64,000 nt of DNA from a bacterium (GTDB lineage: Bacteria > JAJVIF01). The stretch covers positions 79,667 to 143,666 of the forward strand of contig JAJVIF010000004.1 of NCBI GenBank assembly GCA_022072165.1, read 5' to 3'. The notes under the pieces are model-generated. The model made no database searches, was not told the origin of the DNA, and saw nothing but the letters and a program-made list of their open reading frames with translations. The position numbers were made by a program, and so were the translations under genes. Positions 29,680-53,485 of the stretch are shown here, one piece after another (within the stretch, counting starts at the first letter, position 1; each line of letters starts with the position of its first letter).

Positions 29680-30064
29680 GGCACCTCCCTCGAGTCGTAC
29701 GTCGAGCGCACGTAATACGAGCGCATAGGCAGCAGTCCCGCGGCTGACAGGTAGCATCAGACGCGGCGCGGCAACGCGCTTTTGGTGACCCTGGTCGTAA
29801 CTTCGGAGTCTGACAGTCCCCTGCGAGTTCACGCCGCCTAGCGTGACCCGGCTGGGGTATGGGTCAGTATACCATCCTGACATTCGCCATAGGTGCGACC
29901 TGGCCTGATTTCATCAGGGTCCCGGTACAATGAAGGTATCGCCCGGCACTCCAGCGGGAGCTGGCGTGAAGGGACGGGTCGCTCAGGCCCCCTCGCTCAT
30001 CTTCTGGACATCGCGGAGCTGCCACGATCCCCCACGGATGGTGCACGCTCCCAGGGACCCTAAC

Positions 30065-32815
30065 ATGCGCTTCGCTGCTCTCCTCGGACTCAGTCCGCTT
30101 CTGCTGCTTGCGGGATGTACCTCGACCGCCGACTCACTTGCGGTGCCTGCTGACGTTCCGCTACCTGGTAACGTCGCCAGTACGGTGGCCGCTGGAGTGT
30201 CGGGACTCTGGGGGCTCTATGACCTCACCATCGATGCGGAGTCGCTGAGCGCGGCCACGATCCTGCTGTCGCCCCGGTCGCTCCAGGCGAATGACGATCT
30301 GTACCTCCTTTCGATCGATGCGTTCCTGCAGCCCGGGTCGTTTCAGATCCGGCAGGTGACGGTCAATGGAGGGGACCTGGTCCTGACCTGGCGTCTGACC
30401 CATCCCTTCCCAGCCCCCCAGGACCCGGCTGGGACACCGAATGGCTCCACGAACCGGGCGGACCTGGGGATCGCCGGGATGCTGGCGTTCCTGCTGGATG
30501 CCCCCGCGACCGGTAACACGTACTTCACCGACGTCATCGCCAACACCGCGCTGGTCGCGAACCCCGATGCCTATGTCCGACCTGCCGCGGTGATCGTGGA
30601 CCCGGGCATGACCGCGAATACTTTTCCGTATCAGGCCTTTGTGGATGAAAGCGGCAACGGCAGCCGGGTCGGCATCTCCAATGGCGGCGATGTCACCGGC
30701 AACTTCGGCAGTGATGGCTGGACCCGGGCGGAGCTCGGTGCGGGCAACGATGGCTGGACCGGCTACGGTGTTCTGCATCAGGGGCAGGCGAGCGAGCGGG
30801 AAGTCCGGGTCCCCCTCGCGGCACTGCAGGCAGCGGGTCCGGTGTCACTCAAAGTCGCGCTGATCGCGAAGTACAACGACCCCCGGGGCGGACTGACTCC
30901 CGCTGAGAAGAAGGCGAATCGCCTCCCCCCCGCGAGTCCAGACGCGAGTCGCTTCGCCTACCGGATGCCGCATGGTGCCCTGGATGTTGCGGCCATCGAA
31001 GCGCTGCCCGAGTCGGGCGGGTTCATCCCCAATACCATCAGCGCGAGCACCCTGCGCTTCCGGGTGGTGGACTGGGATGCCCGGGCGACCGATACGACCT
31101 TCCCGGACCTGAGCGACGATCCGGCCTTTACGACGGTCGCCCCGGGCGAAAGCGGGATCCCGAGTCTGGCTATCTCGATCCCCGGCGTGCTGGGGAGTGC
31201 CGCGGTCGAGGACCTGTGGGATGCCAGCACGCTCACCGACGATGACTCAGCGTATGGTGGCGACAGCACGGCGGACAGTGGCCGTCCGGGTGATGCCCTG
31301 TATTTCGAGAAGGCAGTCACCAAAGCGGCGGGATCGGGGCAGGTAAGCGGCAACTTCACCGGACTGGTGCGGGTGTCCGATCCGGAGCCCACTAATCTCA
31401 TTACGGCGCTCGACCCCGCGTCCCTGCTGCCCCTCACCAGCGGCCAACCGGCGAATGTCACCTATCAGGCGTTCCAGGTCATGATGGCCCCCTCCGCAAC
31501 TCCAGGCTGGGCCGTGCAGCATGGGGGGACCGGGAATGACCTGCTCTATGCGGTCCATGCGACTCCCACGGGGGACTGCTATGTCGGCGGGGCATTCCTG
31601 GGAGCTGTTGACTTTGGGTTCGGCTCAGTCTCTCCCTCCGGGAGCAGCGACGCCTGGCTGCTCAAGCTGGATGCCGAGGGTGCGCCGGTGTGGGTCCGGA
31701 CTTTCGGCGGGACCGCCGGCGACCAGGTGAATCGCATCGCCACTGATCCGGTCACCGGTGATGTCGTGGTGACCGGGCTCTTCAACAACAGTTGCGACTT
31801 CGGTAACGGGACGCCCCTGGCGGCGGTCGGCAGTACCGACATCTACATCGCAAAGTACACCCCCACCAACGCCTTCGTCTGGGCCCGGGCTTATGGGACC
31901 GCCGGGGCAGATTCCGGACGGGGCATCGCGGTGGATGCCGCCGGTGAGGTGGTGGTCAGCGGCTCAGCGGTCGGGACCCTCGACCTCGGCGGAGGACCCG
32001 TGGCGGGGGCCGGACTCGCGGATGGCTGGCTCCTGAAGCTAACCAGCGGCGGGACCCATGTCTGGGACCGCCGCATCATGGGCTCGAGCATCGATTTCGC
32101 CCAGCGCGTGGCGGTCAACAGCAGCAACGAGGTCTATCTCGCCGGCGAAGCGCGTTCGATTGATCTCGGCGCGGGGGTTATCTGTTCTGCCGGTGGCGCG
32201 GATGGCTATGTGCTCAAGTACACCAGCACCGGGACCCTCCTCTGGACGCACTGGTGGGGGAGCAGCACCAATGATCTGGTGGATGACCTGGCGGTCGACA
32301 GTACGGGGGCGGCCTATGTTTGTGGCCCCTTTGGTGGGTCGCTCTCCCTGGGAGGTCCGGTGATCACCAACGCCGGCGGCTTTGATGGCTATCTCGTCAA
32401 AGTCAGCAACAGCGGTGTCTACCAGTGGGATTACACCATCCGGACCAGTGCAGTCACCCAGGATCGCATTCAGGGACTCGCCGTGAGTCCCACGGATCAG
32501 GTCACGATCTGCGGCGTCTTTGGCAACGATGTCGACTTTGGCGGCGGTCCACGGACTCACTCCACCAGTGGCGAGGATGCCTTCGTCGCCCGCCTTGCCT
32601 CCGATGGCACCTGGTTGTGGGATGCCATTTACACCGGGACAGGCAATCAGTCGCTCATCGATGTCGCCTCGGATAACGCGGGGGATGTCCGGAGTGGGGG
32701 GACGTTCCAGAACAGTGTCGATGCCGATCCAGGGGTGGGGGTCCAGACCTTCACGGCGGTCGGCGGGATCGATGCCTGGACCACGAAGCTCAAGGCGGCA
32801 ACCGGCCGCTTCTAG
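30065..32815 (+). CDS. large lipoprotein with beta-propeller-like repeats (SBBP-type)
   Basis: MRFAALLGLSPLLLLAGC lipobox; C-terminal half has repeated motifs DAWLLKLDAEG, DGWLLKLTSGG, DGYVLKYTSTG, DGYLVKVSNSG, DAFVARLASDG. Confidence 0.7.
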   Translation: MRFAALLGLSPLLLLAGCTSTADSLAVPADVPLPGNVASTVAAGVSGLWGLYDLTIDAESLSAATILLSPRSLQANDDLYLLSIDAFLQPGSFQIRQVTVNGGDLVLTWRLTHPFPAPQDPAGTPNGSTNRADLGIAGMLAFLLDAPATGNTYFTDVIANTALVANPDAYVRPAAVIVDPGMTANTFPYQAFVDESGNGSRVGISNGGDVTGNFGSDGWTRAELGAGNDGWTGYGVLHQGQASEREVRVPLAALQAAGPVSLKVALIAKYNDPRGGLTPAEKKANRLPPASPDASRFAYRMPHGALDVAAIEALPESGGFIPNTISASTLRFRVVDWDARATDTTFPDLSDDPAFTTVAPGESGIPSLAISIPGVLGSAAVEDLWDASTLTDDDSAYGGDSTADSGRPGDALYFEKAVTKAAGSGQVSGNFTGLVRVSDPEPTNLITALDPASLLPLTSGQPANVTYQAFQVMMAPSATPGWAVQHGGTGNDLLYAVHATPTGDCYVGGAFLGAVDFGFGSVSPSGSSDAWLLKLDAEGAPVWVRTFGGTAGDQVNRIATDPVTGDVVVTGLFNNSCDFGNGTPLAAVGSTDIYIAKYTPTNAFVWARAYGTAGADSGRGIAVDAAGEVVVSGSAVGTLDLGGGPVAGAGLADGWLLKLTSGGTHVWDRRIMGSSIDFAQRVAVNSSNEVYLAGEARSIDLGAGVICSAGGADGYVLKYTSTGTLLWTHWWGSSTNDLVDDLAVDSTGAAYVCGPFGGSLSLGGPVITNAGGFDGYLVKVSNSGVYQWDYTIRTSAVTQDRIQGLAVSPTDQVTICGVFGNDVDFGGGPRTHSTSGEDAFVARLASDGTWLWDAIYTGTGNQSLIDVASDNAGDVRSGGTFQNSVDADPGVGVQTFTAVGGIDAWTTKLKAATGRF

Positions 32816-33482: not shown

Positions 33483-34781
33483 TTAGTAGTTCCAGAAGTC
33501 GGAGTACTCGATGGCTCCAAGAGGGGTGATGAGGTGATTGTGATGCGGCAAGCCTACTCCTGGCATGGCGACGACACCCTCAAAGTCGACTGGCTGTGAC
33601 GAGCCATCATGGATCAGCGTGCCATCGTAGGTCAGATCGTCATAGAATCCGTCGTCGTCTGTGTCTTTCAGCTCCACGATCATCTCAAAGACTGGAGCGT
33701 TCGACTCCCAGGTGTCTGGCTCGGGCTCTACGAACGGATGTCCGTCGGCATAACAACAACCGACGGGTGCGATGGTCCCGGTGTTGGTCCGAATTTTCGC
33801 GTGATAGATCAGCGATGACTTGTGCTCTTCGATCGTGGCTGTCCCAAAGGTGTTGAGATAGAAGGCGTCGGACCACAGGAAGAGATCCGGGGCGGTGGTC
33901 GACGGAATCGCGGCATTGCCAAGCATGGTGGACAATCTGCCGTATTCTCTGAGCCCAAAGGCGACAGTGGTTCCGGCCAAACCGTCTGCGACTCCCTGGC
34001 GATACACCTGCTCTGCCTGAGAGTGAGGGCCCCCTTCCGCATTGAATTCCTGGATCCAGCTTTTTAGAACCTGGCCGATCTGAATCCAGTTTCCGGTATG
34101 GGGCCGGGCGATCAGGAGATCGATGTAGGTCTCTTCAAGTTTCTGCTGCAGGGCCAGATCGTAGTCAGCATACGGAAACACGGACTTATCCAGCCGACCA
34201 GACTCCACGGCGATTCGCAGAAAGTCGCCATAAACCGTGATCAGTGGCAGGATTTGGACACCATAACGCTGTCGCTTCGTGGCTTCTCCAGCGAAGGACC
34301 AGTTGTCGAACTGGGGACCCGCCACCACTGGCTTCTTCCACTTGGCGGTGTGGTCCGCTGCATCGGTGGCGACGAGCTCCAGCATAAGGTTGCCCTCGCC
34401 TAACCGCTTGTCCGCCGTGAAATCGAGGCGAAAGGCGCCAGTCTGATGGTCGAAGTAAGAATTCGGTGCGGCCTGTAACAGGTGATCCAGGTTCAACTCT
34501 ACGGACTGCTGTGTCGAGATGTTCAGCACATGCAGCTTCAGGGCATTCGGGTCGCCAGGCGAGAGCCCCGCCTGAGACTGCACTGATCCCTCGAAGAGGG
34601 TGAAGCCGTGAGGGAGAAACTCCCAGGCGCCTGGAGTGGATGTCATGATGAGTTCGATAGGACCCGTTCCTGCCAGGCGGTCGGGCGTGGGGCTGGTCTG
34701 ATTGGGTTTCCCAGCCTGACAGCCGAAGAGACTCAGGCCAGCCAGGCACAGGAGGAACCAGAGGGATGTCGTGGCCTTCAT
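33483..34781 (-). CDS. lipoprotein, function unknown
   Basis: MKATTSLWFLLCLAGLSLFGC lipobox; start overlaps upstream gene stop in a TAATG arrangement at 34781. Confidence 0.6.
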   Translation of the reverse strand: MKATTSLWFLLCLAGLSLFGCQAGKPNQTSPTPDRLAGTGPIELIMTSTPGAWEFLPHGFTLFEGSVQSQAGLSPGDPNALKLHVLNISTQQSVELNLDHLLQAAPNSYFDHQTGAFRLDFTADKRLGEGNLMLELVATDAADHTAKWKKPVVAGPQFDNWSFAGEATKRQRYGVQILPLITVYGDFLRIAVESGRLDKSVFPYADYDLALQQKLEETYIDLLIARPHTGNWIQIGQVLKSWIQEFNAEGGPHSQAEQVYRQGVADGLAGTTVAFGLREYGRLSTMLGNAAIPSTTAPDLFLWSDAFYLNTFGTATIEEHKSSLIYHAKIRTNTGTIAPVGCCYADGHPFVEPEPDTWESNAPVFEMIVELKDTDDDGFYDDLTYDGTLIHDGSSQPVDFEGVVAMPGVGLPHHNHLITPLGAIEYSDFWNY

Positions 34782-35047
34782 TAACAGATACCTCCTCTCA
34801 GCGCGACCTGTCGAGCCGCTTCCCTACAGAGGTCGTTGACTGCTGTTGCTACGCCGGAGGGGACCTGACCACCACTATTGGTGCGAATCCAGTTCATGGG
34901 ATTTTGCAGGACGGTACCGATGCTGCCAACAACCCCGTTCGCTGCTCCCCCTGGCTGTGAACTGCATCCGGCCCACAGCAATGCGAGGACGAGTACGCTC
35001 ACTACAGGCCAGCTGTCACGGGGCCGCAGCTTGGTATGCTGTTCCAT
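34781..35047 (-). CDS. small lipoprotein
   Basis: MEQHTKLRPRDSWPVVSVLVLALLWAGCSS (lipobox LWAGC), AGAGGGA RBS upstream. Confidence 0.45.
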   Translation of the reverse strand: MEQHTKLRPRDSWPVVSVLVLALLWAGCSSQPGGAANGVVGSIGTVLQNPMNWIRTNSGGQVPSGVATAVNDLCREAARQVALRGGIC

Positions 35048-35086: not shown

Positions 35087-35106
35087 ACACACACACACAC
35101 ACACAC
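35087..35106. repeat. dinucleotide microsatellite (AC)10
   Basis: ACACACACACACACACACAC sits 40-60 nt upstream of the 35047 start codon, in the divergent intergenic region shared with korA. Confidence 0.9.
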
Positions 35107-42563: not shown

Positions 42564-42923
42564 TCAATAGCCGACGATCCGGACCCCGCAGAACACACAG
42601 TAGCGACGTCGCGAGGGCTGCTCTTCCCCGCACGAGGGGCAACGGGGGAGGGGCGTCCCTGCAGTGGGCGAACTCCCGTCCACCTTCTGGCCACAGCCGA
42701 CACAGAAGCAGGCCCCCTTCAGGAGCGGAGTCTGGCAGGCAGGGCAGTCGAGGCCGGAGCACTGACGAAAGACCGTTTCGCAGGCGGCACACAGTTCATC
42801 GGATTCCCGGACGCCTTCGCCACAGACTGGGCAGGGGAGCAGGGTCCCGGTGCTGCAGGCAGGACACCAGGCGGCCCCCTCGGGGATCAGCGCGCCGCAT
42901 TCCTGGCAGGTCGGGGAACTCAC
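42564..42923 (-). CDS. multi-zinc-ribbon domain protein
   Basis: Repeated CxxC pairs (CQECG, CPAC, CPVCG, CAAC, CPAC, CVGCG, CPSCG, CVFCG). Confidence 0.5.
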   Translation of the reverse strand: MSSPTCQECGALIPEGAAWCPACSTGTLLPCPVCGEGVRESDELCAACETVFRQCSGLDCPACQTPLLKGACFCVGCGQKVDGSSPTAGTPLPRCPSCGEEQPSRRRYCVFCGVRIVGY

Positions 42924-42976: not shown

Positions 42977-43990
42977 TTACAGGTCGAGGAGTCCTGCAGG
43001 GAGCTTGCGCCAGACACCAGGCTGGTCGGTCTTGTACTGCCAGACCAGCGAGTTTTGCGAATCCAGCAGGGACTCATGGACGATCATTGCAAACCGCTGG
43101 TTCCGAAACTTCTTTCCGGCCGAAGGTTCCCCTCTGGTCAATTGTGCCTGCCGCTTGGGCGCTTCGCCCTTCTCCGATGATGGAGGGGTGGCGTACTCGA
43201 TGATGTAGTTTTCTGAGGTGGCGAACATGACCCACCGGGTATTGTTCACCTCATAGTGAAAGCGCCATTGGCCGGCCTGCGAATGCCAGACTTCCACCGG
43301 TCCGACTTCCTGCTCAATGATCTCCAGTGTCTGGGGGGGAATCCGGAGCCCGAGTTGTTTTTCCAGCCACTGCCCGCCAGGGACTTCGGACGCGGGGGCG
43401 AAAAGCAGTCCCCGGGCGATCCCGTGCAGCAGCTGGAGACCCAGTGGGTCGTGGATACTGAAGCGCAAAATGTGTGGCAGCTCCAGTTCATCCTTGGGGC
43501 GGGGACCCACATTGTGAAACCAGGTACCCTTCGTTTTGCCTTCAAACGGGGCCTCGACATACCAGAGTCCATTGGTGGACTTGTAGCAGCGCCAGCCGTG
43601 GGGTGGCATGACGTCCAGGCGGATGGGCATCAACTCCCCCTGGGCATCGAAGGGTACCAGCGGTAGCGGACTTTCCAGCTCGGGCTGACCGCCCCCGAGC
43701 CAGGCATGAATCACGTCATCCTGGTTACGGGTCGCCGTGCCGATGGCTATCGCAAACGCCTGCAACGAGTTGAAGAGACGTTGCTCCTCAGACTGATTGA
43801 GCCGCTGGGCTATGAACGCCTCCTGCTCTCGTGCTGCTTGCTGGCTTGCGGAGGCGCAACCGCAGCCCAAGATGACACTCAGCATCAGCAGGAGCACCCA
43901 ACCGGAGCCCACGTGGACTGGCAAGTTGCCTGAGCCATACGGCTGCTTCTGCCTATTCACAGCAGCTGCACAGGAAGAGTCTGTGAGCAT
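42977..43990 (-). CDS. lipoprotein, function unknown (downstream partner of Cys-rich protein 1)
   Basis: Hydrophobic segment plus lipobox WVLLLMLSVILGCGC; start uncertain (ATG 43990 or GTG 43913). Confidence 0.5.
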   Translation of the reverse strand: MLTDSSCAAAVNRQKQPYGSGNLPVHVGSGWVLLLMLSVILGCGCASASQQAAREQEAFIAQRLNQSEEQRLFNSLQAFAIAIGTATRNQDDVIHAWLGGGQPELESPLPLVPFDAQGELMPIRLDVMPPHGWRCYKSTNGLWYVEAPFEGKTKGTWFHNVGPRPKDELELPHILRFSIHDPLGLQLLHGIARGLLFAPASEVPGGQWLEKQLGLRIPPQTLEIIEQEVGPVEVWHSQAGQWRFHYEVNNTRWVMFATSENYIIEYATPPSSEKGEAPKRQAQLTRGEPSAGKKFRNQRFAMIVHESLLDSQNSLVWQYKTDQPGVWRKLPAGLLDL

Positions 43991-44495
43991 CTTTATCCTC
44001 CTCGGTGGGTTCAGGCCAGCAATGCAGGTGTTCCTGGCGGGGGCAGCAGGCGTCACAAATCTGATCGTCACCAGTCCAGATGGGCGGACTGGCCTCCTCT
44101 CTCCACGTAAAGCGTGCATCAACCCCTAGTTCCCCACACGGGATGGGTGGGAAGTTCCCAGGGTGCCCAGGATGCTCGTTCTCTATCTCCTCGTAAAGGC
44201 GCTTAAAGTCTTCACAGGTTTCCTGATTCACGCAGGCATACATAGCAGAGTAACCACCGTATTCCGCAGCGCCCCCAGAGATAGCGATGGGTTCTGAGCA
44301 GCTCGGAATCGGAAAGGTGTCACAACAGCAGATGAACTCCGAGAGTTCAAAGTCGAGCGTGGTGTAAAGCGAGATCGCGATCGGGACGCAGCACCCATCT
44401 GGCACGTTTTGCGCCTGGGAAGTCTTCGCGGGGGCTAGCTGTGTCGCGGCCAGCAGTAGCAGCAGCACTGAAAAGTGAAGGGACTTGTGTTTCAT
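43953..44495 (-). CDS. secreted cysteine-rich small protein 1
   Basis: Signal peptide MKHKSLHFSVLLLLLAATQLAPAKTSQA, AAGGA RBS, about 18 Cys including CC and CCC clusters; start overlaps upstream lipoprotein stop (ATGA). Confidence 0.5.
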   Translation of the reverse strand: MKHKSLHFSVLLLLLAATQLAPAKTSQAQNVPDGCCVPIAISLYTTLDFELSEFICCCDTFPIPSCSEPIAISGGAAEYGGYSAMYACVNQETCEDFKRLYEEIENEHPGHPGNFPPIPCGELGVDARFTWREEASPPIWTGDDQICDACCPRQEHLHCWPEPTEEDKDAHRLFLCSCCE

Positions 44496-45508
44496 CGGTT
44501 TTCATTCCTTTCTGGTGCAGACTCCAGACGTGGGACCTCGACATAATCCCACTGATGGGCGGAGAGATCTTCCCAGAGGACCATCTCCTGCAATTGCTGG
44601 GCGATGTGGGCCGACAGGCCTGACTTTCCATAAGGAATGGCAGGACGGTAGTTCAGCAACTTCTTTTTGGGATGAATCTGGAGGTCGTGCCACAAGTCAG
44701 GTATACCTGGACCTGTGAGATGGAGTGCCACTGCGGTGTTATCTGGACGTTTGTACGCCATGATCGAGGGATAGAGAGCCAGCAGGGCTTCCCAGGGCTC
44801 CTGCTGCATTTTGAGATGGAGCGCGTCGAATGCCTGCGACGGCGATTCAGGCATTTGTTTGTAGTACCAATGGTAATGAGTGATGATGCTTGCCAGACTT
44901 CCGGCCCTTCGTGCGCAGAGGTCCTCAGCATCTGGTTCGTGCTCGAAGCCCGGCTTATACTCGCCGGCCAGCGGACGCATAGGCTCATAGCCCTCCCAGC
45001 CGCCGTGAAGGGCCACCCCGAAGTGATCCTCAACCGGGTAGACCGCGATGCTCAACAGGGGCACATCCCCATGTGTCTGAACTACCGGCCAGGGCTCTCC
45101 ACTTTCAAGACAGGGCCAGTAAAGAACCTCAGACGCCAATTCGTTCCAGTTGTTTGGTGCAGTCAACCGGGCCGCTGATGGCACCGCAATTGGGCCAAAG
45201 TAGTAGTTCACCAGGGCCGAATTGACTTCCGCAAAAGTCAGACGTGCCTGGACTTTGGTGATCCCGAGTGGACCATAAGATCTGGCGACCTTCCAGAAGT
45301 CGAAGTAATCGACAGGTTTTTCCTGACGTTTGGTCGCAGTAGAATTCGCAGGCACTTGAGCCAAATCAGTTAGTTTTCCACTATCGCTGACCTGTACCGA
45401 TTTTTCGGCTGAGTTGACCCCGCTGCACCCCATCAGGTACTGGCAGGCCAAGGCAGTCATGAGAGCGACCGTGAGCACGTTCTGACGGGTATTTGTGCGC
45501 TGAGTCAT
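44492..45508 (-). CDS. lipoprotein, function unknown (downstream partner of Cys-rich protein 2)
   Basis: MTQRTNTRQNVLTVALMTALACQYLMGCSG (lipobox); begins 5 nt after the stop of the upstream Cys-rich gene. Confidence 0.55.
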   Translation of the reverse strand: MTQRTNTRQNVLTVALMTALACQYLMGCSGVNSAEKSVQVSDSGKLTDLAQVPANSTATKRQEKPVDYFDFWKVARSYGPLGITKVQARLTFAEVNSALVNYYFGPIAVPSAARLTAPNNWNELASEVLYWPCLESGEPWPVVQTHGDVPLLSIAVYPVEDHFGVALHGGWEGYEPMRPLAGEYKPGFEHEPDAEDLCARRAGSLASIITHYHWYYKQMPESPSQAFDALHLKMQQEPWEALLALYPSIMAYKRPDNTAVALHLTGPGIPDLWHDLQIHPKKKLLNYRPAIPYGKSGLSAHIAQQLQEMVLWEDLSAHQWDYVEVPRLESAPERNENR

Positions 45509-45513
45509 AGGTT

Positions 45514-46029
45514 TCAGCTCGCTTTCTTGTAAGGGCAAGGTGGCAAGTCTGTTTCACACCGCATTCGCGCTTCATGCGGGCAGAAGGGCTCATTGGGACT
45601 TTGTGGAATCGGACAGTCCACAAAAATCTGACCTGGGCATGGAGGTTGGCCTTTTTCTGCCGGCTCTATTAATGCAACAACGTTCCCATAACAGAGTTCC
45701 AGACACCAGCCTTGTCCATCCCTGATGCAGTCAGTGAAGCCTGGTGCAGCTTCAGCGCAATCACCGCAGCGGCACGCTGATCCAAAGGACTCGTTACATT
45801 TCTTGGAGCTTTGGGAAGAGATACCAATCCAGTAGGTCAGCCCGTTGGCGGCACAGTCGCAGGAGTATACTTCTTGGTCATTGCACGGTTCATCGTCTTC
45901 AGTACAAGTCAGGCAGCAATGGCCATAGGCATGAGCCTGACTGACATAACCTGCTTCCGGAGTCGTCCACAAGCTGCCGCACAGGAGCGCCAGGACGATC
46001 ACCATGAGACGTCTGATCTGCATCGTCAT
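45514..46029 (-). CDS. secreted cysteine-rich small protein 2
   Basis: Signal peptide MTMQIRRLMVIVLALLCGSLWTTPEAGYVSQAHA followed by YGHCC...; about 20 Cys. Confidence 0.5.
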   Translation of the reverse strand: MTMQIRRLMVIVLALLCGSLWTTPEAGYVSQAHAYGHCCLTCTEDDEPCNDQEVYSCDCAANGLTYWIGISSQSSKKCNESFGSACRCGDCAEAAPGFTDCIRDGQGWCLELCYGNVVALIEPAEKGQPPCPGQIFVDCPIPQSPNEPFCPHEARMRCETDLPPCPYKKAS

Positions 46030-46071
46030 CCCCCAAGAATGCTGGGGACTGCATACTAATGCACAAGGTTA

Positions 46072-46091
46072 CTCTCTCTCTCTCTCTCTCT
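46072..46091. repeat. dinucleotide microsatellite (CT)10
   Basis: CTCTCTCTCTCTCTCTCTCT sits 43-62 nt upstream of the 46029 start codon, between the M16 peptidase stop and the Cys-rich gene 2 start. Confidence 0.9.
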
Positions 46092-46136
46092 GTCAAGGCG
46101 ATGCCGGAAAATTATTGGCGATGAGCCGACACGCGG

Positions 46137-48866
46137 TTACTCCAGCGAGACGGCGGGGGTGAAGAGGTCGCCGGTCACGGCCAGCCAGGCATTGGCGGGC
46201 TGGAAGTACGTCGTCGCGACCCGGTTCGCCTCCTCCACCGTGACCCCGGCCATCCGCTGGAGGAGCTGCCAGTCGAAGTCCCAGGGGAGATCCCGGGCGA
46301 CATTGAGCGCCATCGCCTGTGATTGCGCCTGCATCCCAGCCAGCGACATCAGGGTTTGCCCCCTGCTGTAGGTGACAGCGGTTGCGAGCTCTTCGGCTGT
46401 GATGCCCTCGGTGGCGATGAGCCGAAACTCCCGCTGCAGGCCGGTGATGGCCTGCTCCCACATTTCAGGCCGTGTCCCAATCCGGGCCGACAGGATGCCG
46501 CCATCACGATACGCCTCCACCCGGGAATAGGTGCCATAGGCCAGCCCTTCCTTGCCCCGCAGCCGGTCAAACAGCCGGGAGAGCCAGCTGCCTCCCAGCA
46601 CCATGTTGACCGCCTGGATCGCCGGGAGGTCCGGGTCATGCAGGGCGACGCCGGGGAGTCCCAGCACACTCATCGTTTGGGCCTTGGCGGTCTGCTGGAC
46701 AATCCGCTGCAGGCCCGTGGCGCTCCGGGGGATAGCGGGAGAGAGCACGGTGCCGGTCTGACGTTTCCGCACCGGTAACCCTCCAAAAATGGTTTCCAGC
46801 TCAGGCTGCACAGTGGCGGGATCGATGTCACCTGTCAGGGTCAGGACTAACGTAGAGGGATCAAAGATGTGCACCGCGTGATCCAGCAGATGCTCCCGGG
46901 TCAGAGCACTGACCGCCGCAGGGCGTCCCAACGGCGGACGGCCGTACGCCACGTCCTGGCCCCACATCGCCAGCGTCAGCTGATCATGTGTGGTGTTGTA
47001 CGACTCATCGGCCCGGGCGGTGATCTCCGCGAGAAGGATGTCGCGGGCGACTGCCACTTCCTCTTCGGGGAAGGTGGCCTGACTGATGAGATCGGCGATC
47101 AACGGCAATGCTGTGGCGAGGTCATCGGCGGCATAGAGTCCGCTCAGCGAGGTGGTGTCGTAGCTGACACTCACTTCGAAGCGTCCGCCGAGGTGGTCGA
47201 TGAGTCCCAGGATGTCATCGGCAGAACGGGTGGTCGTCCCCTTGGTCAGGGTCCGCTCCAGCAGCGCGCCGAGTCCGTTGGTCTCCCAGGACTCCAGATC
47301 GAGTCCCTGCGGCGCGGCGAGAGTGAGCCCCACCGTCCCGGTCCCAAGGACCGGCTTCACCAGCACCCGCATCCCGTTCCGGAGCGTCAGCGTGGTGGGT
47401 GCCGCCCCCGCTCCGGCGGCCTGACTGGCGGGATAGATCGGCTGTGTGGATGTCCCCAGCCGGCCGATGTCGCCAGGTCGCTCCAGGGGAGCGGCTGAGG
47501 GGTCCAGCAATGACCAGTTCGGGGTCAGGGGAGCCGCACCAGTCTCGGCGGTGGCGAGGCCGAGGGTGATGTGCGCGGCGGGGAGGAAATGCTGCGCCGC
47601 CCACTGGACATCCGCAGCGTTGACCCCCGCCAGGCGAGCGGCATAGTCTTCGAAGAAGAGGGGAGACCCGGTGGCGTTGATGTAATAGCCGAGGGTGTAG
47701 GCCTGACTCTGGACATCCTCCCCCAGGAACAAATGCTGGAGCATCAGCTGTCGGCGCGCGCGGTCAAGCTCGCTCGCGGTGGGGCCCTGCTCCTTGAGCT
47801 GCCGAATGACCCTGAAGATTTCCTCGGTAGCAGCGAGGGTCTGCGCGGGGTCCGCCATCTCCGCGCTGAGCCAAAAGGCGGACTGCGTGATCAGTTCTTG
47901 TGTGCTGGTAGAGATGTCGGAGACGAGCCCGAGCTCGTCGCGCAGACGTCGCACCAGCCGACTTGCATCCCCCTGTCCGAGAATCGCGGCCAGCACCTGC
48001 AGAGCATAGGTTTCATCGGCACGGGCGGCGGTTGTGGGCCAGACAGCAGCGATGTGATTGGTGGCGTAGTCCCGGACTCCCACCAGCGACTGCGGCGCAG
48101 TCTGGGAGTAGGGAGTCGTGCCGGGGTCCGGGGCGATTTCAGTCGGCTGCCAGGCACTGAACTCTTCGGTGAGGATCTGCAGCGCATCCTCCGCGTTAAA
48201 GTCACCGACGGCAATGGTGAATGCGTTGTTGGGACCATAAAAGCGACGGTAGTACTCCCGCATCTGCTCATTGGTCTGGGCATCGAGGGTCGGGGCATCG
48301 CCGATGACCGGATGCCGATAGCCAGCGTGGGCCATGGCTGCCGGGAGCACCAGATCGCCCAGGAACCAGCCGGGGTTGTCGAGTCCCTGCCGGAGCTCTT
48401 CCTTCACGACTTCGCGCTCCCGTCCGAACTCGCTGTCCAGGAGCACGGGCTGGCTCACGAGGAGGGCGGTCATATGCGCGATTTCCCGGAGCTTGTCGGC
48501 GGGTCCGACATGGAAGTAGTTGGTGTTGTCCTGATCCGTGGAGGCGTTGTTGTCGATGGCGTTCTGAAACAGGATGCGGTTGAAGTCATCCAGGGGCATC
48601 CCGACTGATCCATCAAAGAGCATGTGCTCGAGGAAATGGGAGATGCCGGCATCGGCTGGTTGCTCGTTGCGGGCCCCGACCCGAAACCAGGTATTCACGA
48701 CCGCCACTGGCGCCGCGTGGTTCTCGACAATGAGCAATTGCATCCCATTGGGAAGGGTCGCCATGAGCATCCCCCCGGGAGTGCGGACCGGTTCGGCAGC
48801 GGGGGCAGGGGTGGCAACGGTGAGGGACATCAGGACTCCGGTGAGCAGCAGCACGAGGGCGCGCAT
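46137..48866 (-). CDS. secreted tandem M16-family zinc peptidase (pitrilysin/insulinase-like)
   Basis: Signal peptide MRALVLLLTGVLMSLTVATPAPAAEP; inverzincin motif HFLEHMLFDGS (HxxEH); about 900 aa consistent with two M16 units; GGAGG RBS. Confidence 0.85.
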   Translation of the reverse strand: MRALVLLLTGVLMSLTVATPAPAAEPVRTPGGMLMATLPNGMQLLIVENHAAPVAVVNTWFRVGARNEQPADAGISHFLEHMLFDGSVGMPLDDFNRILFQNAIDNNASTDQDNTNYFHVGPADKLREIAHMTALLVSQPVLLDSEFGREREVVKEELRQGLDNPGWFLGDLVLPAAMAHAGYRHPVIGDAPTLDAQTNEQMREYYRRFYGPNNAFTIAVGDFNAEDALQILTEEFSAWQPTEIAPDPGTTPYSQTAPQSLVGVRDYATNHIAAVWPTTAARADETYALQVLAAILGQGDASRLVRRLRDELGLVSDISTSTQELITQSAFWLSAEMADPAQTLAATEEIFRVIRQLKEQGPTASELDRARRQLMLQHLFLGEDVQSQAYTLGYYINATGSPLFFEDYAARLAGVNAADVQWAAQHFLPAAHITLGLATAETGAAPLTPNWSLLDPSAAPLERPGDIGRLGTSTQPIYPASQAAGAGAAPTTLTLRNGMRVLVKPVLGTGTVGLTLAAPQGLDLESWETNGLGALLERTLTKGTTTRSADDILGLIDHLGGRFEVSVSYDTTSLSGLYAADDLATALPLIADLISQATFPEEEVAVARDILLAEITARADESYNTTHDQLTLAMWGQDVAYGRPPLGRPAAVSALTREHLLDHAVHIFDPSTLVLTLTGDIDPATVQPELETIFGGLPVRKRQTGTVLSPAIPRSATGLQRIVQQTAKAQTMSVLGLPGVALHDPDLPAIQAVNMVLGGSWLSRLFDRLRGKEGLAYGTYSRVEAYRDGGILSARIGTRPEMWEQAITGLQREFRLIATEGITAEELATAVTYSRGQTLMSLAGMQAQSQAMALNVARDLPWDFDWQLLQRMAGVTVEEANRVATTYFQPANAWLAVTGDLFTPAVSLE

Positions 48867-49012
48867 GGGGCCTCCAGGCATACCTCCCGGGCTGGTGGGT
48901 CCGGGGAGGGTGAGAAAGGCGAAGTGCCGGGGGGAAGGATACGCGAGCCGCCCGGGGGGCCGGGCGGCGAAGGCAGGCTTACATCAAAGTCGGTCGGTCG
49001 TGCCGACGAGCC

Positions 49013-50074
49013 TCAGAGCCCTGGGAGGATGGCATCGGCGGCGGGGGTCAGAGTGAAGGCCGCCAGGGGCTGCCAGGCGAGACCCTCCACGGCATCGGCC
49101 CGGAGTCCCTGGGTGACGAACTCTCCCGGTCCCGACACCGTGACCTGCACGATGCCAGCTTCCTCGAGGCCGCTGGGGTAACGGAGCAGGAAGCGCAGAT
49201 GTGTCCCGGCAGGTTCACTAAAGAGGGCGAACCCGCTGGCGGTGCCATCGGTGAACGCCGCGCTGTCGATGGGGTCCAGATTGACCGGACCCAGCGCGGT
49301 TCCCCAGCCGATCTCTTCCATGCTTGCTGGCATCTGTCCGGTGTTAGCCAGGGTCGCGCTGGCGGCGTGGAGCCACTGGCTCAGCGCTTCTGCGACCCGG
49401 GCATCCTGCAGGGGACGGGCGGTCTGGCGGTACCCCTCCAGGATCTGCTGCCGGACTGCAGGCCGGCTGCTCTCGCGCTCGGCGGCCAGCATCGTGTCGA
49501 GGCTGTCAGGTGTCAGACTCTCCAGCGCTGCGATCTTCGGATTGACGAGCGGCGCAGGCGGCGCGGACTGACCCATACGGACGGGCTCCAGATGGAGGAG
49601 TCCATCGGTTTCGCCATAGACCGGGAGGTGTCCGGCAGGGGGCTGATTTGCCACGAGGGTCAAAGTCCACTGCGCGGCCTGCGAGCGCCAGGCTTCCGGG
49701 GTCACGGTGCCGGTGAGCGGGTCGGTGGTCGCGGCAGCGAGGATGCCCGTTGCGGGGTCGGCCAAAGTCCAGGCGAAGACAAAGGGGGCCAGGCCCTCCG
49801 GAGTCGCGGGCCAGCTCCCCTGGACCTGCGAGGCCCGGATGGCTCCCTGCGAGATGCCATGAAAGGTCAGGGGCAACAGAGAGAACCAGGTCGCAGAGTC
49901 CCGTTGCTGCAGACGAGTCGTGCGGGTCGCGAGCCAGGCCTCGACTCCCTCCACCTGCTGACTCCGGGGCTGATCGTTGACCGCAGTTGCGGTCTCCTTG
50001 GGGGGCGCGGTGATACACGCCGCGATGAACAATAGCGGCAACGGCACCAGCCAGCACAACGTACGGGTAGTCAT
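49013..50074 (-). CDS. lipoprotein, function unknown (downstream partner of Cys-rich protein 3)
   Basis: MTTRTLCWLVPLPLLFIAAC lipobox; strong AAGGAG RBS. Confidence 0.55.
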   Translation of the reverse strand: MTTRTLCWLVPLPLLFIAACITAPPKETATAVNDQPRSQQVEGVEAWLATRTTRLQQRDSATWFSLLPLTFHGISQGAIRASQVQGSWPATPEGLAPFVFAWTLADPATGILAAATTDPLTGTVTPEAWRSQAAQWTLTLVANQPPAGHLPVYGETDGLLHLEPVRMGQSAPPAPLVNPKIAALESLTPDSLDTMLAAERESSRPAVRQQILEGYRQTARPLQDARVAEALSQWLHAASATLANTGQMPASMEEIGWGTALGPVNLDPIDSAAFTDGTASGFALFSEPAGTHLRFLLRYPSGLEEAGIVQVTVSGPGEFVTQGLRADAVEGLAWQPLAAFTLTPAADAILPGL

Positions 50075-50165
50075 GGGATTCTCCTTGTGAGTTCTCACTT
50101 TTGTGGGACTTTTCCTCAGTGCGATCGGCTAAGAAAGACTGCTAGCATGGGCTGGTGGGCGCAGG

Positions 50166-50543
50166 CTAACAGCACTCTGCGGACTCCTCCTCACCACAGA
50201 CGAAAGGCTCTCCAATCGGGTACGACGGATAGCCGGGTGGGAAGCAAGTGCAGCTTCCTGCGCAGGTATAAGAAGTGTAGGTCTTGTACTCTCGCCAGTG
50301 TTGACCTGTGCATGGGATGCAGTTTAGGCAAGCACAATTTGCGGGAGGGCAGCTCAGGAATGCAGCTTTCTGAATATTGTAAAAGTGTGTACAAGGTGAG
50401 AAGCCCGACCCGTTCCAGCACCAGCAAACCTCAAAGCCGGTGCCCCCAAGAGAGATCTCCATCTCGCAGCAGTCTGCAAAAGTAACTGATGGGAGCAAAA
50501 GCACGCTCCAGCCTAGTACAGCAGAAAGGAAAAACCTTAACAC
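50166..50543 (-). CDS. secreted cysteine-rich small protein 3
   Basis: GTG start at 50543 with GGAGGA RBS (track ORF extends to a TTG at 50585); signal peptide ending VTFA then DCC...; ends ...EEESAECC. Confidence 0.5.
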   Translation of the reverse strand: MLRFFLSAVLGWSVLLLPSVTFADCCEMEISLGGTGFEVCWCWNGSGFSPCTHFYNIQKAAFLSCPPANCACLNCIPCTGQHWREYKTYTSYTCAGSCTCFPPGYPSYPIGEPFVCGEEESAECC

Positions 50544-50782
50544 GGGTTTCCTCCAGGCTGGGATTTGGGTGATCGGACGCGACAAAATCTACCCTGCTTC
50601 CTCATTGCAGTCAATGAGCTTTTCTAAAAAATGCGTCCATACTGAACGAGTTGCTGCAGCAATGCCGCCAGCGCTGCATCGCTGGTAGTATCAATCGGCA
50701 AACGGCGGTGGGTCTGAAGAGCAGTTTCCCGCATCGGGCAGTATCAGCTAAAGAGGGGAGCGAAGGCCGGTACAATCAGCAG

Positions 50783-52339
50783 ATGCCCTTCGAAGTGACC
50801 TTCGATGACCAGCCCTATCCCCTGCCACCGGAGTTGGTGCCACCCCCCTTAGGGTTGCTGCCCGCCGATGAGGGGCCAGATAAACTCGCCCTGTTTGAAG
50901 CGCTTGGGCGGCTACAGCGCGACCTCTCCCGGCTCTCCGGACGCCTCCAGCTCAACATCAAGAGTCAGCAGGAAGGGCAGATGAAGGTCGAGGAAGCGAT
51001 GGGGGCTCTGGAGTCCCGCTTCCGCGAAGCGAGCCTGGTGAAGCCCCCGCCACCCCCGGTCGTGACTGGTGGTGGGGCGAGCCTCGAACAGTTGACCCCC
51101 CATCTGGCGAAGCTGAGCGAGCAGCTGGTCGGCATCCAGCGGAAGGTCAATCCCCTCAGCGAGCAGCTCGAAGCGGTGAAGGGGAGTTACAGGGAGAAGG
51201 TCGAGGAGAGTCAAATCGAGCGGATTCTCCCGGTCCTCGACTCCTTCGAGCGCCTCTTCGAGCAGGCGGGTCAGAGTGAAGACCCGAAGATGCAGAAGTG
51301 GCTCGAAGGAGTCCGGATGATCTACAACCAGCTGCGCAGCTTCCTGCGAGGTCAGGGGGTCGAGGAGATTCCGGCTCTGGGTGAGGTGTTTGATCCGAAG
51401 CTCTTCGCAGCGGTCGGGACCGACCCTACGGATGCGTATCCGCCGAACGTGGTCAGCCGGGTCGGTCGGACTGGGTATCGCCGTCAGACCGAATCGGGTA
51501 CGAAAATCCTGCGAGTCCCGGAAGTCTTTGTGGCCAAGCCTCCGACGGAAGCGATGCGCCTCGATGAGTCGCAGCTGACCCGGGCGGAAATCCTGGAGCA
51601 GCAGCGTCGGGAGGATGCGGGGGAAGTTTCTGCGTCATCATCGTCGACGTCTGCGCCTCCGCCAGCGACTGCTGCACCACCTGCACCACTCATCGCTGCC
51701 CCACCGGCCCCATCACCAGCGCCTGTCGTGATGACGGAGCCTGCACCGGAGCCACCACCAGCGTTAGTTGCAGAATCTGTAGCAGAGCCAGCCGCCGCCG
51801 AGGATCTGTTACCCGATCCTGCGACTCTCACCATTGGTCCGGGGGAGGACAAGTTTGCCGACATCCGGGCGAAGGCGGAAGCCGCGCTCAAAGGGCTGTT
51901 CGAGCCCGCCGCGCATCTGGAGTCCGCCCATCCGACCCCGGTGGCGGAGCCGCCAGCACCATCCGTGTCGCCATCGCAGCAGACCAGCTTCGCTGGCTGG
52001 GGTGGTCTTGGGACCGAAGCGACTGTGCCGGACACGCCACCGCAGATGCCAGCAGTCGAGGGAGGAGTCCCGATGGATGCACCGCCGCTGGAAGGGGGAG
52101 GCGAGGAGTACTACGCCTCCGGGGATGGGTTGTATGAACTCCGGATGGCGCGGGGTCTGAGCCTCGCGGACTTCTGGGGACATGCGTTCGGCAAGCAGTT
52201 GGGTGACCAGCAACTGATGGACCTGGGGGAAGCGGTCGAGCGGGAAGAGGAGTGTATCGATGAGAAGGAGCTGCGTCGGCTGGCTCAGGGTCTGGGACTG
52301 ACCGTCGAGGACCTGCTGCCACTGCTCCGTCGGGAGTAA
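50783..52339 (+). CDS. grpE: GrpE-domain nucleotide exchange factor with long Pro/Ala-rich C-terminal extension
   Basis: ILPVLDSFERLFEQAG, EGVRMIYNQLRSFLRGQGVEEIPALGEVFDPKLFAAVG and VGRTGYRRQTESGTKILRVPEVFVAKP match GrpE; followed by about 250 aa of P/A/E-rich sequence. Start uncertain. Confidence 0.7.
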   Translation: MPFEVTFDDQPYPLPPELVPPPLGLLPADEGPDKLALFEALGRLQRDLSRLSGRLQLNIKSQQEGQMKVEEAMGALESRFREASLVKPPPPPVVTGGGASLEQLTPHLAKLSEQLVGIQRKVNPLSEQLEAVKGSYREKVEESQIERILPVLDSFERLFEQAGQSEDPKMQKWLEGVRMIYNQLRSFLRGQGVEEIPALGEVFDPKLFAAVGTDPTDAYPPNVVSRVGRTGYRRQTESGTKILRVPEVFVAKPPTEAMRLDESQLTRAEILEQQRREDAGEVSASSSSTSAPPPATAAPPAPLIAAPPAPSPAPVVMTEPAPEPPPALVAESVAEPAAAEDLLPDPATLTIGPGEDKFADIRAKAEAALKGLFEPAAHLESAHPTPVAEPPAPSVSPSQQTSFAGWGGLGTEATVPDTPPQMPAVEGGVPMDAPPLEGGGEEYYASGDGLYELRMARGLSLADFWGHAFGKQLGDQQLMDLGEAVEREEECIDEKELRRLAQGLGLTVEDLLPLLRRE

Positions 52340-52364: not shown

Positions 52365-53063
52365 GTGGAAACGCTGATCGGACAGGGCGCATACACGTTG
52401 CGTGAAGCCGGGCGCATCCTCGGACGTCCGAAGCGTTGGGTCGAGGGCTGGCTGAAGTCGTTAGACCGCACCAAATCCGGTGTACTGCAGGACCGTTGGG
52501 TGTTTGAAGATGTTCGTCTGCTCACTTTTGCAGATTTAATCGAGCTATACCTGATTTCGGAATTCCAGGAGGTCGGGATCAAACGTGCTGTCATCAGAAA
52601 GGCAGCACAGACTCTGACCGAGCGCTACAACTCGCCGCACCCCTTCTCCCTGCGTGCCTGTTTCGCCGATGTGCAGGCGATCTTTTTTAAGTATCAGGGC
52701 GTTCAGGGTGAGTTGAATGAGGATGCTTCCGGCCGGAAGGGACAGCTGGTGATCCCGGCACTTCTGGATGTCATCAGGCATGTCGAAACTCGGCTGGAGT
52801 TTGATGCGGATGGGAAAGCAATTCGGTTCTGGCCGATGGCTACCGGCACTAAGCGTGGTTTGGTGGTGCTGGATCCGATGCGCCAGATGGGGCGACCAAT
52901 CGTGGCGGCCTGCGGCGTTTCCACCCGGGTGCTGGACCTGGCTGTTAAAGCCGAGGGTGTGGAGTATCTGAACGACATCGCGAAGTCCTATCGGGTGTCC
53001 CCTGCTGATGTCCGTGCGGCCGTTGAGTATGAGGAATCATTGCTGCACCGCTCCGCTGCATGA
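52365..53063 (+). CDS. DUF433-domain protein (antitoxin-like) with extended N-terminal region
   Basis: GTG start with AGGAGGA RBS; C-terminal GRPIVAACGVSTRVLDLAVKAEGVEYLNDIAKSYRVSPADVRAAVEY resembles DUF433. Confidence 0.55.
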   Translation: METLIGQGAYTLREAGRILGRPKRWVEGWLKSLDRTKSGVLQDRWVFEDVRLLTFADLIELYLISEFQEVGIKRAVIRKAAQTLTERYNSPHPFSLRACFADVQAIFFKYQGVQGELNEDASGRKGQLVIPALLDVIRHVETRLEFDADGKAIRFWPMATGTKRGLVVLDPMRQMGRPIVAACGVSTRVLDLAVKAEGVEYLNDIAKSYRVSPADVRAAVEYEESLLHRSAA

Positions 53064-53485
53064 AAATCCTGCTGGACGAGCATCATCCTGTGGAGGTTCA
53101 GAATGCCCTGAACACCCTGGGTGATGTGGCGGAAATGATGATTAGGCTGCTGCAACAGGGAATGTCCGATGAAGCACTGTTGGCCTACTCAAAGCAGGAA
53201 AAGTTTGAAGTCTTCCTGACCGCAGACCGAGGTATGCGAGGGAAGCAGACGCACAGGGCCAGCCTGGCCGGCTTCCTAGATATGGGTTGCGTGATCTTCC
53301 TGCCAGCGAAGTACACAAAGCTGGGTCGGTCGCAAAAGGCTGCCTGGCTGCTGGAGTATTGGCCTGACATCCGCAGTGTGGTGGACAAATGTCCTGCCGG
53401 TCACTTCATCAAAGTGACTGCGACAGGACTGCCGCAGATTCGGCCGTACAATCCCCCGACTCATTCAAGCGGGGGACCGGTGTAA
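53060..53485 (+). CDS. DUF5615-family (PIN-like) protein, putative toxin partner of DUF433
   Basis: MKILLDEHHP... N-terminus typical of DUF5615; ATGA overlap with upstream gene. Confidence 0.6.
   Translation: MKILLDEHHPVEVQNALNTLGDVAEMMIRLLQQGMSDEALLAYSKQEKFEVFLTADRGMRGKQTHRASLAGFLDMGCVIFLPAKYTKLGRSQKAAWLLEYWPDIRSVVDKCPAGHFIKVTATGLPQIRPYNPPTHSSGGPV

Follow-up and report, generated by a model that had tools for sequence, protein, structure and literature searches.

A predicted accessory operon of cysteine-rich exported proteins and lipoproteins with a dinucleotide repeat in its putative promoter spacer

Introduction

Contingency loci that carry a simple repeat in the spacer of a promoter include hifA/hifB of Haemophilus influenzae (TA repeat), porA of Neisseria meningitidis (poly-G) and vlp of Mycoplasma hyorhinis (poly-A) (PMC3899988). 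Variability of another kind is found in TraA/TraB of Myxococcus, a two-gene envelope complex whose cysteine-rich, polymorphic specificity part exists as many coexisting alleles (PMC6372800, PMC3820747). Here we analyze a group of genes for small cysteine-rich exported proteins (Cys1, Cys2 and Cys3) and lipoproteins (Lip1, Lip2 and Lip3) in a 64,000-nucleotide (nt) stretch of contig JAJVIF010000004.1 (assembly GCA_022072165.1), hereafter called the window. Four of these genes, Cys2-Lip2-Cys1-Lip1, form an operon, referred to below as the module, that may specify a variable envelope complex whose expression is switched by a repeat.

In Chlamydia, the operon of the cysteine-rich envelope proteins OmcA and OmcB, which encodes a small cysteine-rich protein and a lipoprotein, gives rise to a disulfide-linked envelope structure; there, the lipoprotein and the small cysteine-rich protein are one and the same, and cysteine is abundant in the large partner as well. 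To our knowledge, phase variation driven by repeats has, like allelic surface polymorphism, been described almost only in host-adapted pathogens, and bacterial secreted proteins with 8-9 disulfides are unusual. We know of no repeat control of traAB.

Results

The original prediction, made from the letters of the window alone, had described three equivalent cassettes on the minus strand, each consisting of a gene for a cysteine-rich small protein translationally coupled to a downstream lipoprotein gene, arranged around a secreted M16 peptidase that might process the small proteins. All seven open reading frames (ORFs) are present on that strand where it had placed them (coordinates are positions in the window throughout), but their arrangement is different. 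Cys2 (46029-45514, 171 aa), Lip2 (45508-44492, 338 aa), Cys1 (44495-43953, 180 aa) and Lip1 (43990-42977, 337 aa) are tightly packed, and the proposed spacing was recovered only between Cys2 and Lip2, which are separated by a 5-nt gap. The ATGA overlap joins the stop codon of Lip2 to the start codon of Cys1 rather than a cysteine-rich gene to the lipoprotein gene downstream of it, and the overlap between Cys1 and Lip1 measures 38 nt. Instead of three equivalent cassettes, the window contains one four-gene operon, made up of cassettes 1 and 2 with Lip1 as the last gene, and a doubtful Cys3-Lip3 pair.

The features of the individual proteins held up better. The signal peptides of the small proteins are of the Sec type, without a conserved twin arginine, and a CC pair is reached 1-6 residues into each mature N-terminus: the signal peptide of Cys2 ends in ..SQAHA and its mature part starts with YGHCC, while the corresponding region of Cys1 reads ..SQAQNVPDGCC. 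The likelier start codon of Cys2 is an ATG at 46023 (169 aa), located 5 nt past GGGGGA. Cysteine counts were 16 in Cys1, 19 in Cys2 and 16 in Cys3, within the predicted range of 15-20, but one of the Cys2 residues lies in the signal peptide, leaving 16, 18 and 16 in the mature parts, all even numbers. Lipoboxes, which we assigned by the pattern [LVI][ASTVILM][GAS]C at the end of the signal peptide, follow hydrophobic stretches in all three large proteins (ILGC in Lip1, LMGC in Lip2 and IAAC in Lip3). No further ORF for a cysteine-rich protein with a signal peptide was found elsewhere in the window. Since TamB and MlaD are encoded in other parts of the window, the host is a diderm bacterium with an outer membrane.

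Ratios of nonsynonymous to synonymous substitution rates (dN/dS) were computed, in the reading frames of the original prediction, between the window and contig L010, which comes from a divergent conspecific strain and carries M16-Cys2-Lip2-Cys1-Lip1. The ratios were 0.22 for Cys2, 0.23 for Lip2 and 0.135 for Cys1, and 0.06-0.07 for the M16 gene; all mature cysteines of Cys1 and Cys2 were kept. Because dN/dS is low and every mature cysteine is conserved, Cys1, Cys2 and Lip2 are real genes under purifying selection. The NCBI record of the metagenome-assembled genome (GEEBNDBF_02603-07) annotates Lip1, Cys1, Lip2, M16 and Lip3. Cys2 has no annotation in that record, where the tags jump from 02605 (Lip2) to 02606 (M16), and no gene was called at the position of Cys3 in six Logan contigs. 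Gene callers overlook small genes of atypical composition such as Cys2 and Cys3, and the practical lesson is that two of the three small genes are absent from public annotation or gene calls.

As originally proposed, the cysteine-rich proteins and the lipoproteins fall outside any characterized family. None of the six matched Pfam, NCBIfam, PADLOC or PHROGs at E values up to 1, neither a metallothionein nor a copper storage signature being matched in Pfam by the cysteine-rich proteins at that threshold, and PDB sequence searches with all six at E values up to 10 returned noise only. A scan of IMG/VR with Cys3 and tblastn searches of plasmids with Cys3 and Lip2 gave no match. The idea that the cassettes belong to one homologous family did not survive comparison: neither Cys1, Cys2 and Cys3 nor Lip1, Lip2 and Lip3 showed mutual homology by BLASTP or by profile-profile comparison, made after family alignments had been built (hhalign probabilities of 6% or lower), and all that the cysteine-rich proteins have in common is the pattern signal peptide-CC-x13-22-CxC/CCC. 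Word-indexed searches with Cys1 and Lip3 recovered only strain variants with at least 92% identity. These negatives are weak, because the Cys1 search, in which 10 candidates were scored, missed a 48%-identical homologue in contig L024 that has the 13-residue exact stretch GHPGNFPPIPCGE in common with Cys1. A profile search made with one alignment, in which the number of candidates was capped, recovered at least 3 proteins.

An exhaustive HMMER phmmer search with Lip2 against 1.84 billion cluster-representative proteins identified seven remote homologues, which are 27-34% identical to it and 245-359 aa long (E values 3e-25 to 3e-4). Six of the seven have a lipobox, as does the seventh once its start is corrected, and Lip2 is the founding member of a small family of lipoproteins of 310-360 aa. 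In the window and six of the seven homologue lineages, a cysteine-rich gene of the signal peptide-CC type lies 5-68 nt upstream of the Lip2-family gene, or a Cys1-type gene lies directly downstream of it; the upstream gene was scored only where upstream DNA was available. Cys2 homologues precede Lip2-family genes in L024, L025, L026, L030 and L031, and Cys1 homologues with the same cysteine spacing directly follow them in L024, L026 and L027. The Cys1-type spacing that is kept reads CC-x18-20-CCC-x4-7-C-x20-21-C-x5-C..., and the Cys2-type spacing is likewise kept within its type.

In L024, a Cys2-like gene (168 aa) is followed after 11 nt by a Lip2-like gene, which overlaps by ATGA a Cys1-like gene (173 aa, 48% identical), and a Lip1-like lipoprotein gene follows 22 nt later. 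In L027/28/29, a Lip2-like gene and, 19 nt further on, a Cys1-like gene are followed by a Lip1-like gene with an ATGA overlap, and in L026 a cysteine-rich gene (..ESCC) precedes by 7 nt a Lip2-like gene that overlaps by ATGA a Cys1-like gene, where the contig ends. L025 has a cysteine-rich gene (..AACC) 11 nt upstream of its Lip2-like gene. Only a two-gene version is present in L030 and in L031/32, where a cysteine-rich gene (..ADCC in both) lies 46 and 68 nt, respectively, upstream of the Lip2-like gene, and L023 has the Lip2-like gene alone. The genes that follow the Cys1-type genes of L024 and L027 are Lip1 homologues (30% and 20% identity, respectively), with the C-terminal end W..(K/P)...GL.(D/G)L in common. 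Because cysteine-rich genes flank Lip2-family genes in the window and in six of the seven remote lineages, the pairing of a cysteine-rich protein with a lipoprotein, proposed from the window as a recurrent unit, is a conserved functional unit. Downstream genes of both the Cys1 and Lip1 types occur in L024 and L027, and in L026 at least that of the Cys1 type; judging from these gene orders, two or more other lineages contain the four-gene operon as such.

Upstream of Cys2 lies a candidate σ70-like promoter (46096-46066, minus strand), which lies 40 nt past the stop codon of the M16 gene and consists of TTGACA (46096-46091), (GA)9G (46090-46072) and TAACCT (46071-46066), with a spacer of 19 nt. 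The (CT)10 microsatellite at 46072-46091 had been noted in the original prediction, but its position in the promoter spacer, the most informative feature of this locus, had not. A simple-sequence repeat is found between the −35 and −10 hexamers not only in the window but also in L010, L013, L024 and L030; counting only sites upstream of the module, three lineages have it. The sequence is TTGACA-(GA)10G-TATCCT upstream of Cys2 in L010 (spacer of 21 nt), TTGACA-(AC)7C-TAGAAT upstream of the Cys2-like gene in L024 (15 nt) and TTGACA-(AG)7AA-TAGAGT upstream of the cysteine-rich gene in L030 (16 nt). In L013, a sister strain, TTGACA-(GA)7G-TAAACT (1249-1275 of that contig, spacer of 15 nt) stands directly upstream of Lip3-M16, where the same kind of repeat promoter would drive another operon. 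In the module promoters, a Shine-Dalgarno sequence and a start codon follow 30-40 nt further on. An alternative −10 hexamer for the module, TAGTAT, located further downstream, was rejected, as its −35 would lie within the repeat.

The number of repeat units differs between conspecific strains at the same locus, with 9 in the window and 10 in L010 (two alleles seen). Under a first-order Markov model, 0.013 dinucleotide repeats of at least 7 units are expected per 64 kb; the window has two, and the other module loci (45 kb) also have two, both of which lie in the module promoter spacer. Because the repeat unit differs across lineages while its position is kept, these sequences point to selection that maintains the repeat itself rather than an inherited sequence. 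A spacer of the form (GA)nG measures 2n+1 nt, and the optimal 17 nt is obtained with n = 8; the observed values of 7, 9 and 10 are one or two slips off.

Two further sets of repeats were seen. L031 (1240-1275) and L032, which has the same sequence, carry a module promoter, TTGACT...TATATT, without a dinucleotide repeat, after which the 5′ untranslated region contains 3.5 copies of the 9-nt tandem repeat CTATCCCCG. The second perfect microsatellite of the window, (AC)10 at 35087-35106, precedes by 40 nt a pair of overlapping lipoprotein genes on the minus strand: the stop codon of the first (34781-35047, 88 aa, LLWAGC) overlaps the start of the second (33483-34781, 432 aa, LSLFGC). Neither lipoprotein has a Pfam match, and (AC)10 has no clear −35/−10 frame. 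Repeat-associated lipoprotein operons may be a habit of this genome.

Comparison of the window with L010 revealed a hypervariable allelic segment (44700-45950, minus strand). Nucleotide identity was 93-97% in M16, Cys1 and Lip1, and fell to 59-75% in the mature part of Cys2 and approximately residues 40-220 of Lip2; the signal peptide of Cys2 was nearly identical. Within the block, the proportion of synonymous differences (pS) was 0.7-0.97, that is, saturated, and the ratio of nonsynonymous to synonymous proportions (pN/pS) was 0.2-0.6. Because synonymous sites are saturated between near-identical flanks, the Cys2/Lip2 alleles are far older than the strains carrying them. Either balancing selection or exchange by recombination is compatible with this pattern, in which the two partners vary together. 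At 46120, 45608, 45132 and 44613, just outside or inside the block, Logan contigs of at least five independent samples break off. Such ends are expected where alleles coexist in one sample, and they are consistent with coexisting alleles within samples.

Lip2 was modeled with AlphaFold2 (AF2) on an eight-sequence alignment, giving a predicted local distance difference test score (pLDDT) of 68 and a predicted template modeling score (pTM) of 0.68, with well-predicted cores. In the model, a disordered linker past the lipobox is followed by two domains, each made of a helix and an antiparallel sheet, and Foldseek searches of PDB and BFVD with the model returned nothing significant. The residues W, P, F, G, Q, A and D are invariant in Lip2, and neither cysteine nor histidine is among them, a set more in keeping with a scaffold than with an enzyme. 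A type IV pilin or pseudopilin was considered and rejected, as the N-terminus carries a lipobox and no G|F/M-T-L-x-E prepilin motif; a resemblance of the model to pilins is a weak lead.

The peptidase gene (48866-46137, minus strand, 909 aa) encodes what had been predicted, a secreted tandem M16 peptidase, of the PqqL/FusC type: PF00675 (E value 1e-33) and PF05193 (M16_C, E value 9e-62) each match in two stretches, giving two M16 plus M16_C units, and an HFLEH motif (HxxEH, first unit) and a signal peptide can be read from the sequence. What did not stand is the arrangement of the cassettes around it and, with it, the processing of the cysteine-rich proteins by M16, which is no conserved neighbor of the module. 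In L024, L030 and L031 the module is present and no M16 gene adjoins it. When GTDB was scanned with M16, no relative exceeded 29% identity, and a scan of JGI metagenomes found one useful relative, L019, in which the M16 C-terminus is about 68% identical. There, M16, 5 nt, a zinc-ribbon gene and a photolyase gene follow one another and the module is absent, so that the order is that of the window minus a 3.1-kb block. The more distant M16 loci L004-L009 and L020-L022 have neither cysteine-rich nor lipoprotein neighbors. A peptide that is ribosomally synthesized and post-translationally modified (RiPP) was considered as the product of a precursor and processing peptidase, and rejected: none of the loci contains a modifying enzyme, and the association with M16 is not conserved. 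The peptidase that drew attention to the locus is a bystander.

The zinc-ribbon gene of the window (42564-42923, minus strand) encodes a 119-aa protein built from several zinc ribbons, with DZR and Zn_Ribbon_1 matches, 18 cysteines and no signal peptide. From the order in L019, it would be the ancestral neighbor of M16, displaced by the inserted block. The GC content at third codon positions (GC3) is 0.77-0.80 in M16, Lip3, the zinc-ribbon gene and the photolyase gene, and 0.54 in Cys2, 0.57 in Cys3, 0.61 in Lip2, 0.64 in Cys1 and 0.72 in Lip1. Because its GC3 is atypical when compared to that of M16, Lip3 and the photolyase gene, the module looks like an accessory insertion next to a core gene. 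The dip in GC3 is also seen in L024 and L030, the contexts of the module differ among carrier lineages, and no transposon-like terminal direct or inverted repeats were found around the block.

The third cassette consists of Cys3 (50543-50166, minus strand, 125 aa) and Lip3 (50074-49013, minus strand, 353 aa). They are separated by 91 nt and therefore not translationally coupled as had been supposed. Cys3 is probably a gene: it has a repeat-free promoter-like site (50586-50614, minus strand; TTGACT, 17 nt, TAGATT), a GTG start (50543) 6 nt past GGAGGA, a signal peptide (..VTFA, then DCC) and the shared cysteine pattern, here CC-x13-CxC...CC. A TTG at 50585 was rejected as the start because it directly follows the −10 hexamer, and the promoter-like site would place it upstream of the likely transcript start. 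Cys3 was 100% identical in all contigs carrying it, so there was no variation for a selection test, and it may belong to the CC proteins in diverged form. In L013, window positions 50078-50718 are replaced by 155 nt, and Cys3 and its promoter are absent. Lip3 matches neither the Lip2 nor the Lip1 family, its AF2 model has a pLDDT of 31, and its composition is native (GC3 of 0.79), unlike that of Cys3. With Cys3 missing from L013, the 91-nt gap and the difference in composition, Cys3-Lip3 is not supported as the cognate pair that had been proposed; an accessory gene and a compositionally native lipoprotein gene have probably come to lie side by side by chance, and membership of Lip3 in the module is doubtful. 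Divergently from Cys3, a GrpE-domain protein (50783-52339, plus strand, 518 aa) has a long Pro/Ala-rich C-terminal extension that is unusual for GrpE.

Beside or near module loci, we observed a family of large proteins without Pfam matches that end in ..PW or ..QW (window 29930-32815, plus strand; L024 4996-7746; L023 2680-4608, minus strand; L019 2823-4430, minus strand); its members in L024 and L023 are lipoproteins. Because orphan families are common to the window and the carriers, the carriers of the module probably form one poorly sampled clade. L030 has a T2SSF neighbor, a single case. Elsewhere in the window, the gene for a 232-aa protein without a Pfam match overlaps that for a 141-aa PIN_10/DUF5615 protein (52365-53485, plus strand; GC3 of about 0.65, below that of native genes), a pair that is probably a toxin-antitoxin system, and a 1063-aa UvrD-type helicase (4331-7522, plus strand) is interrupted at residues 663-819 by an RNase_T exonuclease domain.

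Discussion

We propose, with a probability of roughly 0.4, that the accessory operon specifies a repeat-switched, strain-variable envelope complex of cysteine-rich proteins and their cognate lipoproteins. The proposal starts from the observed pairing, purifying selection, position and length polymorphism of the repeat, hypervariable block and accessory distribution. Going by its anatomy, the σ70-like promoter, whose spacing is set by the dinucleotide repeat, would start transcription, and slipped-strand mispairing would shift the spacer in 2-nt steps and thereby switch or tune expression. The four genes, whose tight spacing is seen directly, would be co-translated. The cysteine-rich proteins would be exported by Sec, processed by signal peptidase I, with the invariant CC a few residues past the cleavage site, and folded in the periplasm as knots of 8-9 disulfides, while the two lipoproteins would be lipidated and anchored in the membrane, Lip2 serving as a non-enzymatic two-domain α/β scaffold. 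Each cysteine-rich protein would then bind the neighboring lipoprotein, and the resulting complex would be tethered at the envelope or the surface of the cell. Recognition of this complex by an external agent (phages, predators or other cells) would impose frequency-dependent pressure, by which the deeply diverged coexisting alleles and stochastic expression would be accounted for.

Several points weigh against this proposal. The interaction of the Cys and Lip proteins, surface exposure and switching are all inferred. The pN/pS ratio stays below 1 throughout, with no signal of positive selection, and the deep alleles could stem from a single recombination import. The five spacers measure 15, 15, 16, 19 and 21 nt, a single one of them coming close to the optimum of 17 nt; the hexamers at −10 are weak, and the promoter is assigned by pattern alone. 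The Lip2-family gene of L023 has no cysteine-rich neighbor. Finally, recurrence of the repeat is not fully independent, because the module lineages share other orphan families and appear to be related.

A more specific version of the proposal, which we advance only tentatively, is a new class of contingency locus of uncultured environmental diderms, in which a tandem pilin-like lipoprotein would hold a secreted, disulfide-knotted ligand whose N-terminal CC is invariant, the two forming a polymorphic surface recognition device. Such a device might serve self/non-self discrimination or act as a phage-receptor decoy, with its specificity in the covarying Cys2/Lip2 segment and its expression switched stochastically by the repeat; we consider these roles possible rather than probable. 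If they are right, both protein families and the fold of the cysteine-rich proteins are new. The locus places phase-variation-like anatomy (a perfect −35, a dinucleotide spacer and a −10) in free-living uncultured bacteria. Should a cysteine-rich protein and its lipoprotein prove to be a pair that determines specificity, this poorly known clade would offer a new and compact model of envelope recognition or of toxin-immunity.

Toxin-immunity is the main rival explanation, although we regard it as unlikely: a secreted disulfide-rich bacteriocin-like toxin directed at the envelope of competing cells would be encoded with a cognate immunity lipoprotein that protects the producer. The effector-first, protector-second order with tight coupling, the covariation of adjacent parts of both genes as deeply diverged alleles (the block spans mature Cys2 and Lip2), and the island-like composition and presence/absence polymorphism of a rare, lineage-specific module would all be expected of such a system, and the lone Lip2-family gene of L023, in itself a neutral point, is compatible with an orphan immunity gene. 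However, the lipoproteins are two-domain proteins 2-3 times larger than the supposed toxins, unlike typical small immunity proteins; Pfam, NCBIfam and PADLOC revealed no toxin domain, the module offers no secretion or release route apart from Sec, and promoters under repeat control are typically found with surface structures and not with bacteriocins (PMC3899988). Much less probable is periplasmic metal binding or storage, metallothionein-like or Csp-like, with the metal-binding protein handed to or held by the lipoprotein. The CC, CxC and CCC motifs, a cysteine content of about 10% and the location of the L030 pair next to a ZnuABC/DUF3299 cluster speak for it, but that adjacency was seen once and is convergent. 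Moreover, the signal peptides are of the Sec and not the twin-arginine translocation (Tat) type, implying export into an oxidizing periplasm, the mature cysteine counts are mostly even and their spacing is kept, as in disulfide frameworks, Pfam gave no metallothionein or Csp match, and neither hypervariable alleles nor repeat-controlled expression would be expected for metal homeostasis.

Lower still in our estimate is the earlier idea that the cysteine-rich proteins are substrates or inhibitors of the adjacent M16 peptidase and form one system with it. Cysteine-rich genes do flank both sides of Lip3-M16 in this strain, and M16 proteases of the PqqL/FusC type process small imported periplasmic proteins (PMC6793856, PMC6071955), but synteny has already largely refuted the idea: the module occurs without an adjoining M16 gene (L024, L030, L031) and M16 without the module (L019), L013 keeps Lip3-M16 without Cys3, the composition of the Cys genes marks them as later arrivals, and the module has its own promoter. 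The least probable explanation is that there is no system and that unrelated lineage-specific orphan ORFs are adjacent by chance, as might be supposed from the lack of pairwise similarity among the three cassettes and from the word-indexed searches with Cys1 and Lip3, which gave strain variants only. Against this stand the synteny in the window and six of seven lineages at 27-34% identity, the conserved cysteine spacing and purifying selection; chance adjacency is refuted for Cys2-Lip2-Cys1-Lip1, although it may still hold for Cys3-Lip3 alone.

We therefore return to the proposed repeat-switched envelope complex and compare it with described systems. Like the contingency loci mentioned above, the module has a repeat exactly between −35 and −10, envelope or lipoprotein genes downstream of it and a repeat number that varies by strain. 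Unlike them, it resides in uncultured environmental diderms rather than host-adapted pathogens, its repeat units are GA, AC and AG, its proteins are unrelated and its switching is conjectural. With TraA/TraB it shares the character of an envelope unit with a cysteine-rich, highly polymorphic part, but it lacks a PA14 domain, a MYXO-CTERM tag, an OmpA-like partner and sequence similarity, and TraA is one large protein whereas the module combines a small protein with a lipoprotein. Polymorphic toxin-immunity pairs (colicin/immunity, CdiA-CT/CdiI, or a type VI secretion system effector with its periplasmic immunity lipoprotein) resemble the module in their tightly linked cognate genes, a variable block across the gene junction and island-like distribution; the module differs from them in having no toxin domain or dedicated secretion system, a large, two-domain putative immunity protein and a putatively phase-variable promoter. 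Its proteins have no Pfam match to the OmcA/OmcB families. The 909-aa neighbor matches PqqL/FusC in its two M16 plus M16_C units, first-unit HxxEH and signal peptide (PMC6793856), but no neighboring TonB-dependent receptor was observed. Both the regulatory logic and the general strategy of a contingency locus for variable envelope proteins are of known kinds, whereas the protein families, the two-component design of cysteine-rich protein and lipoprotein, and the uncultured environmental setting are new.

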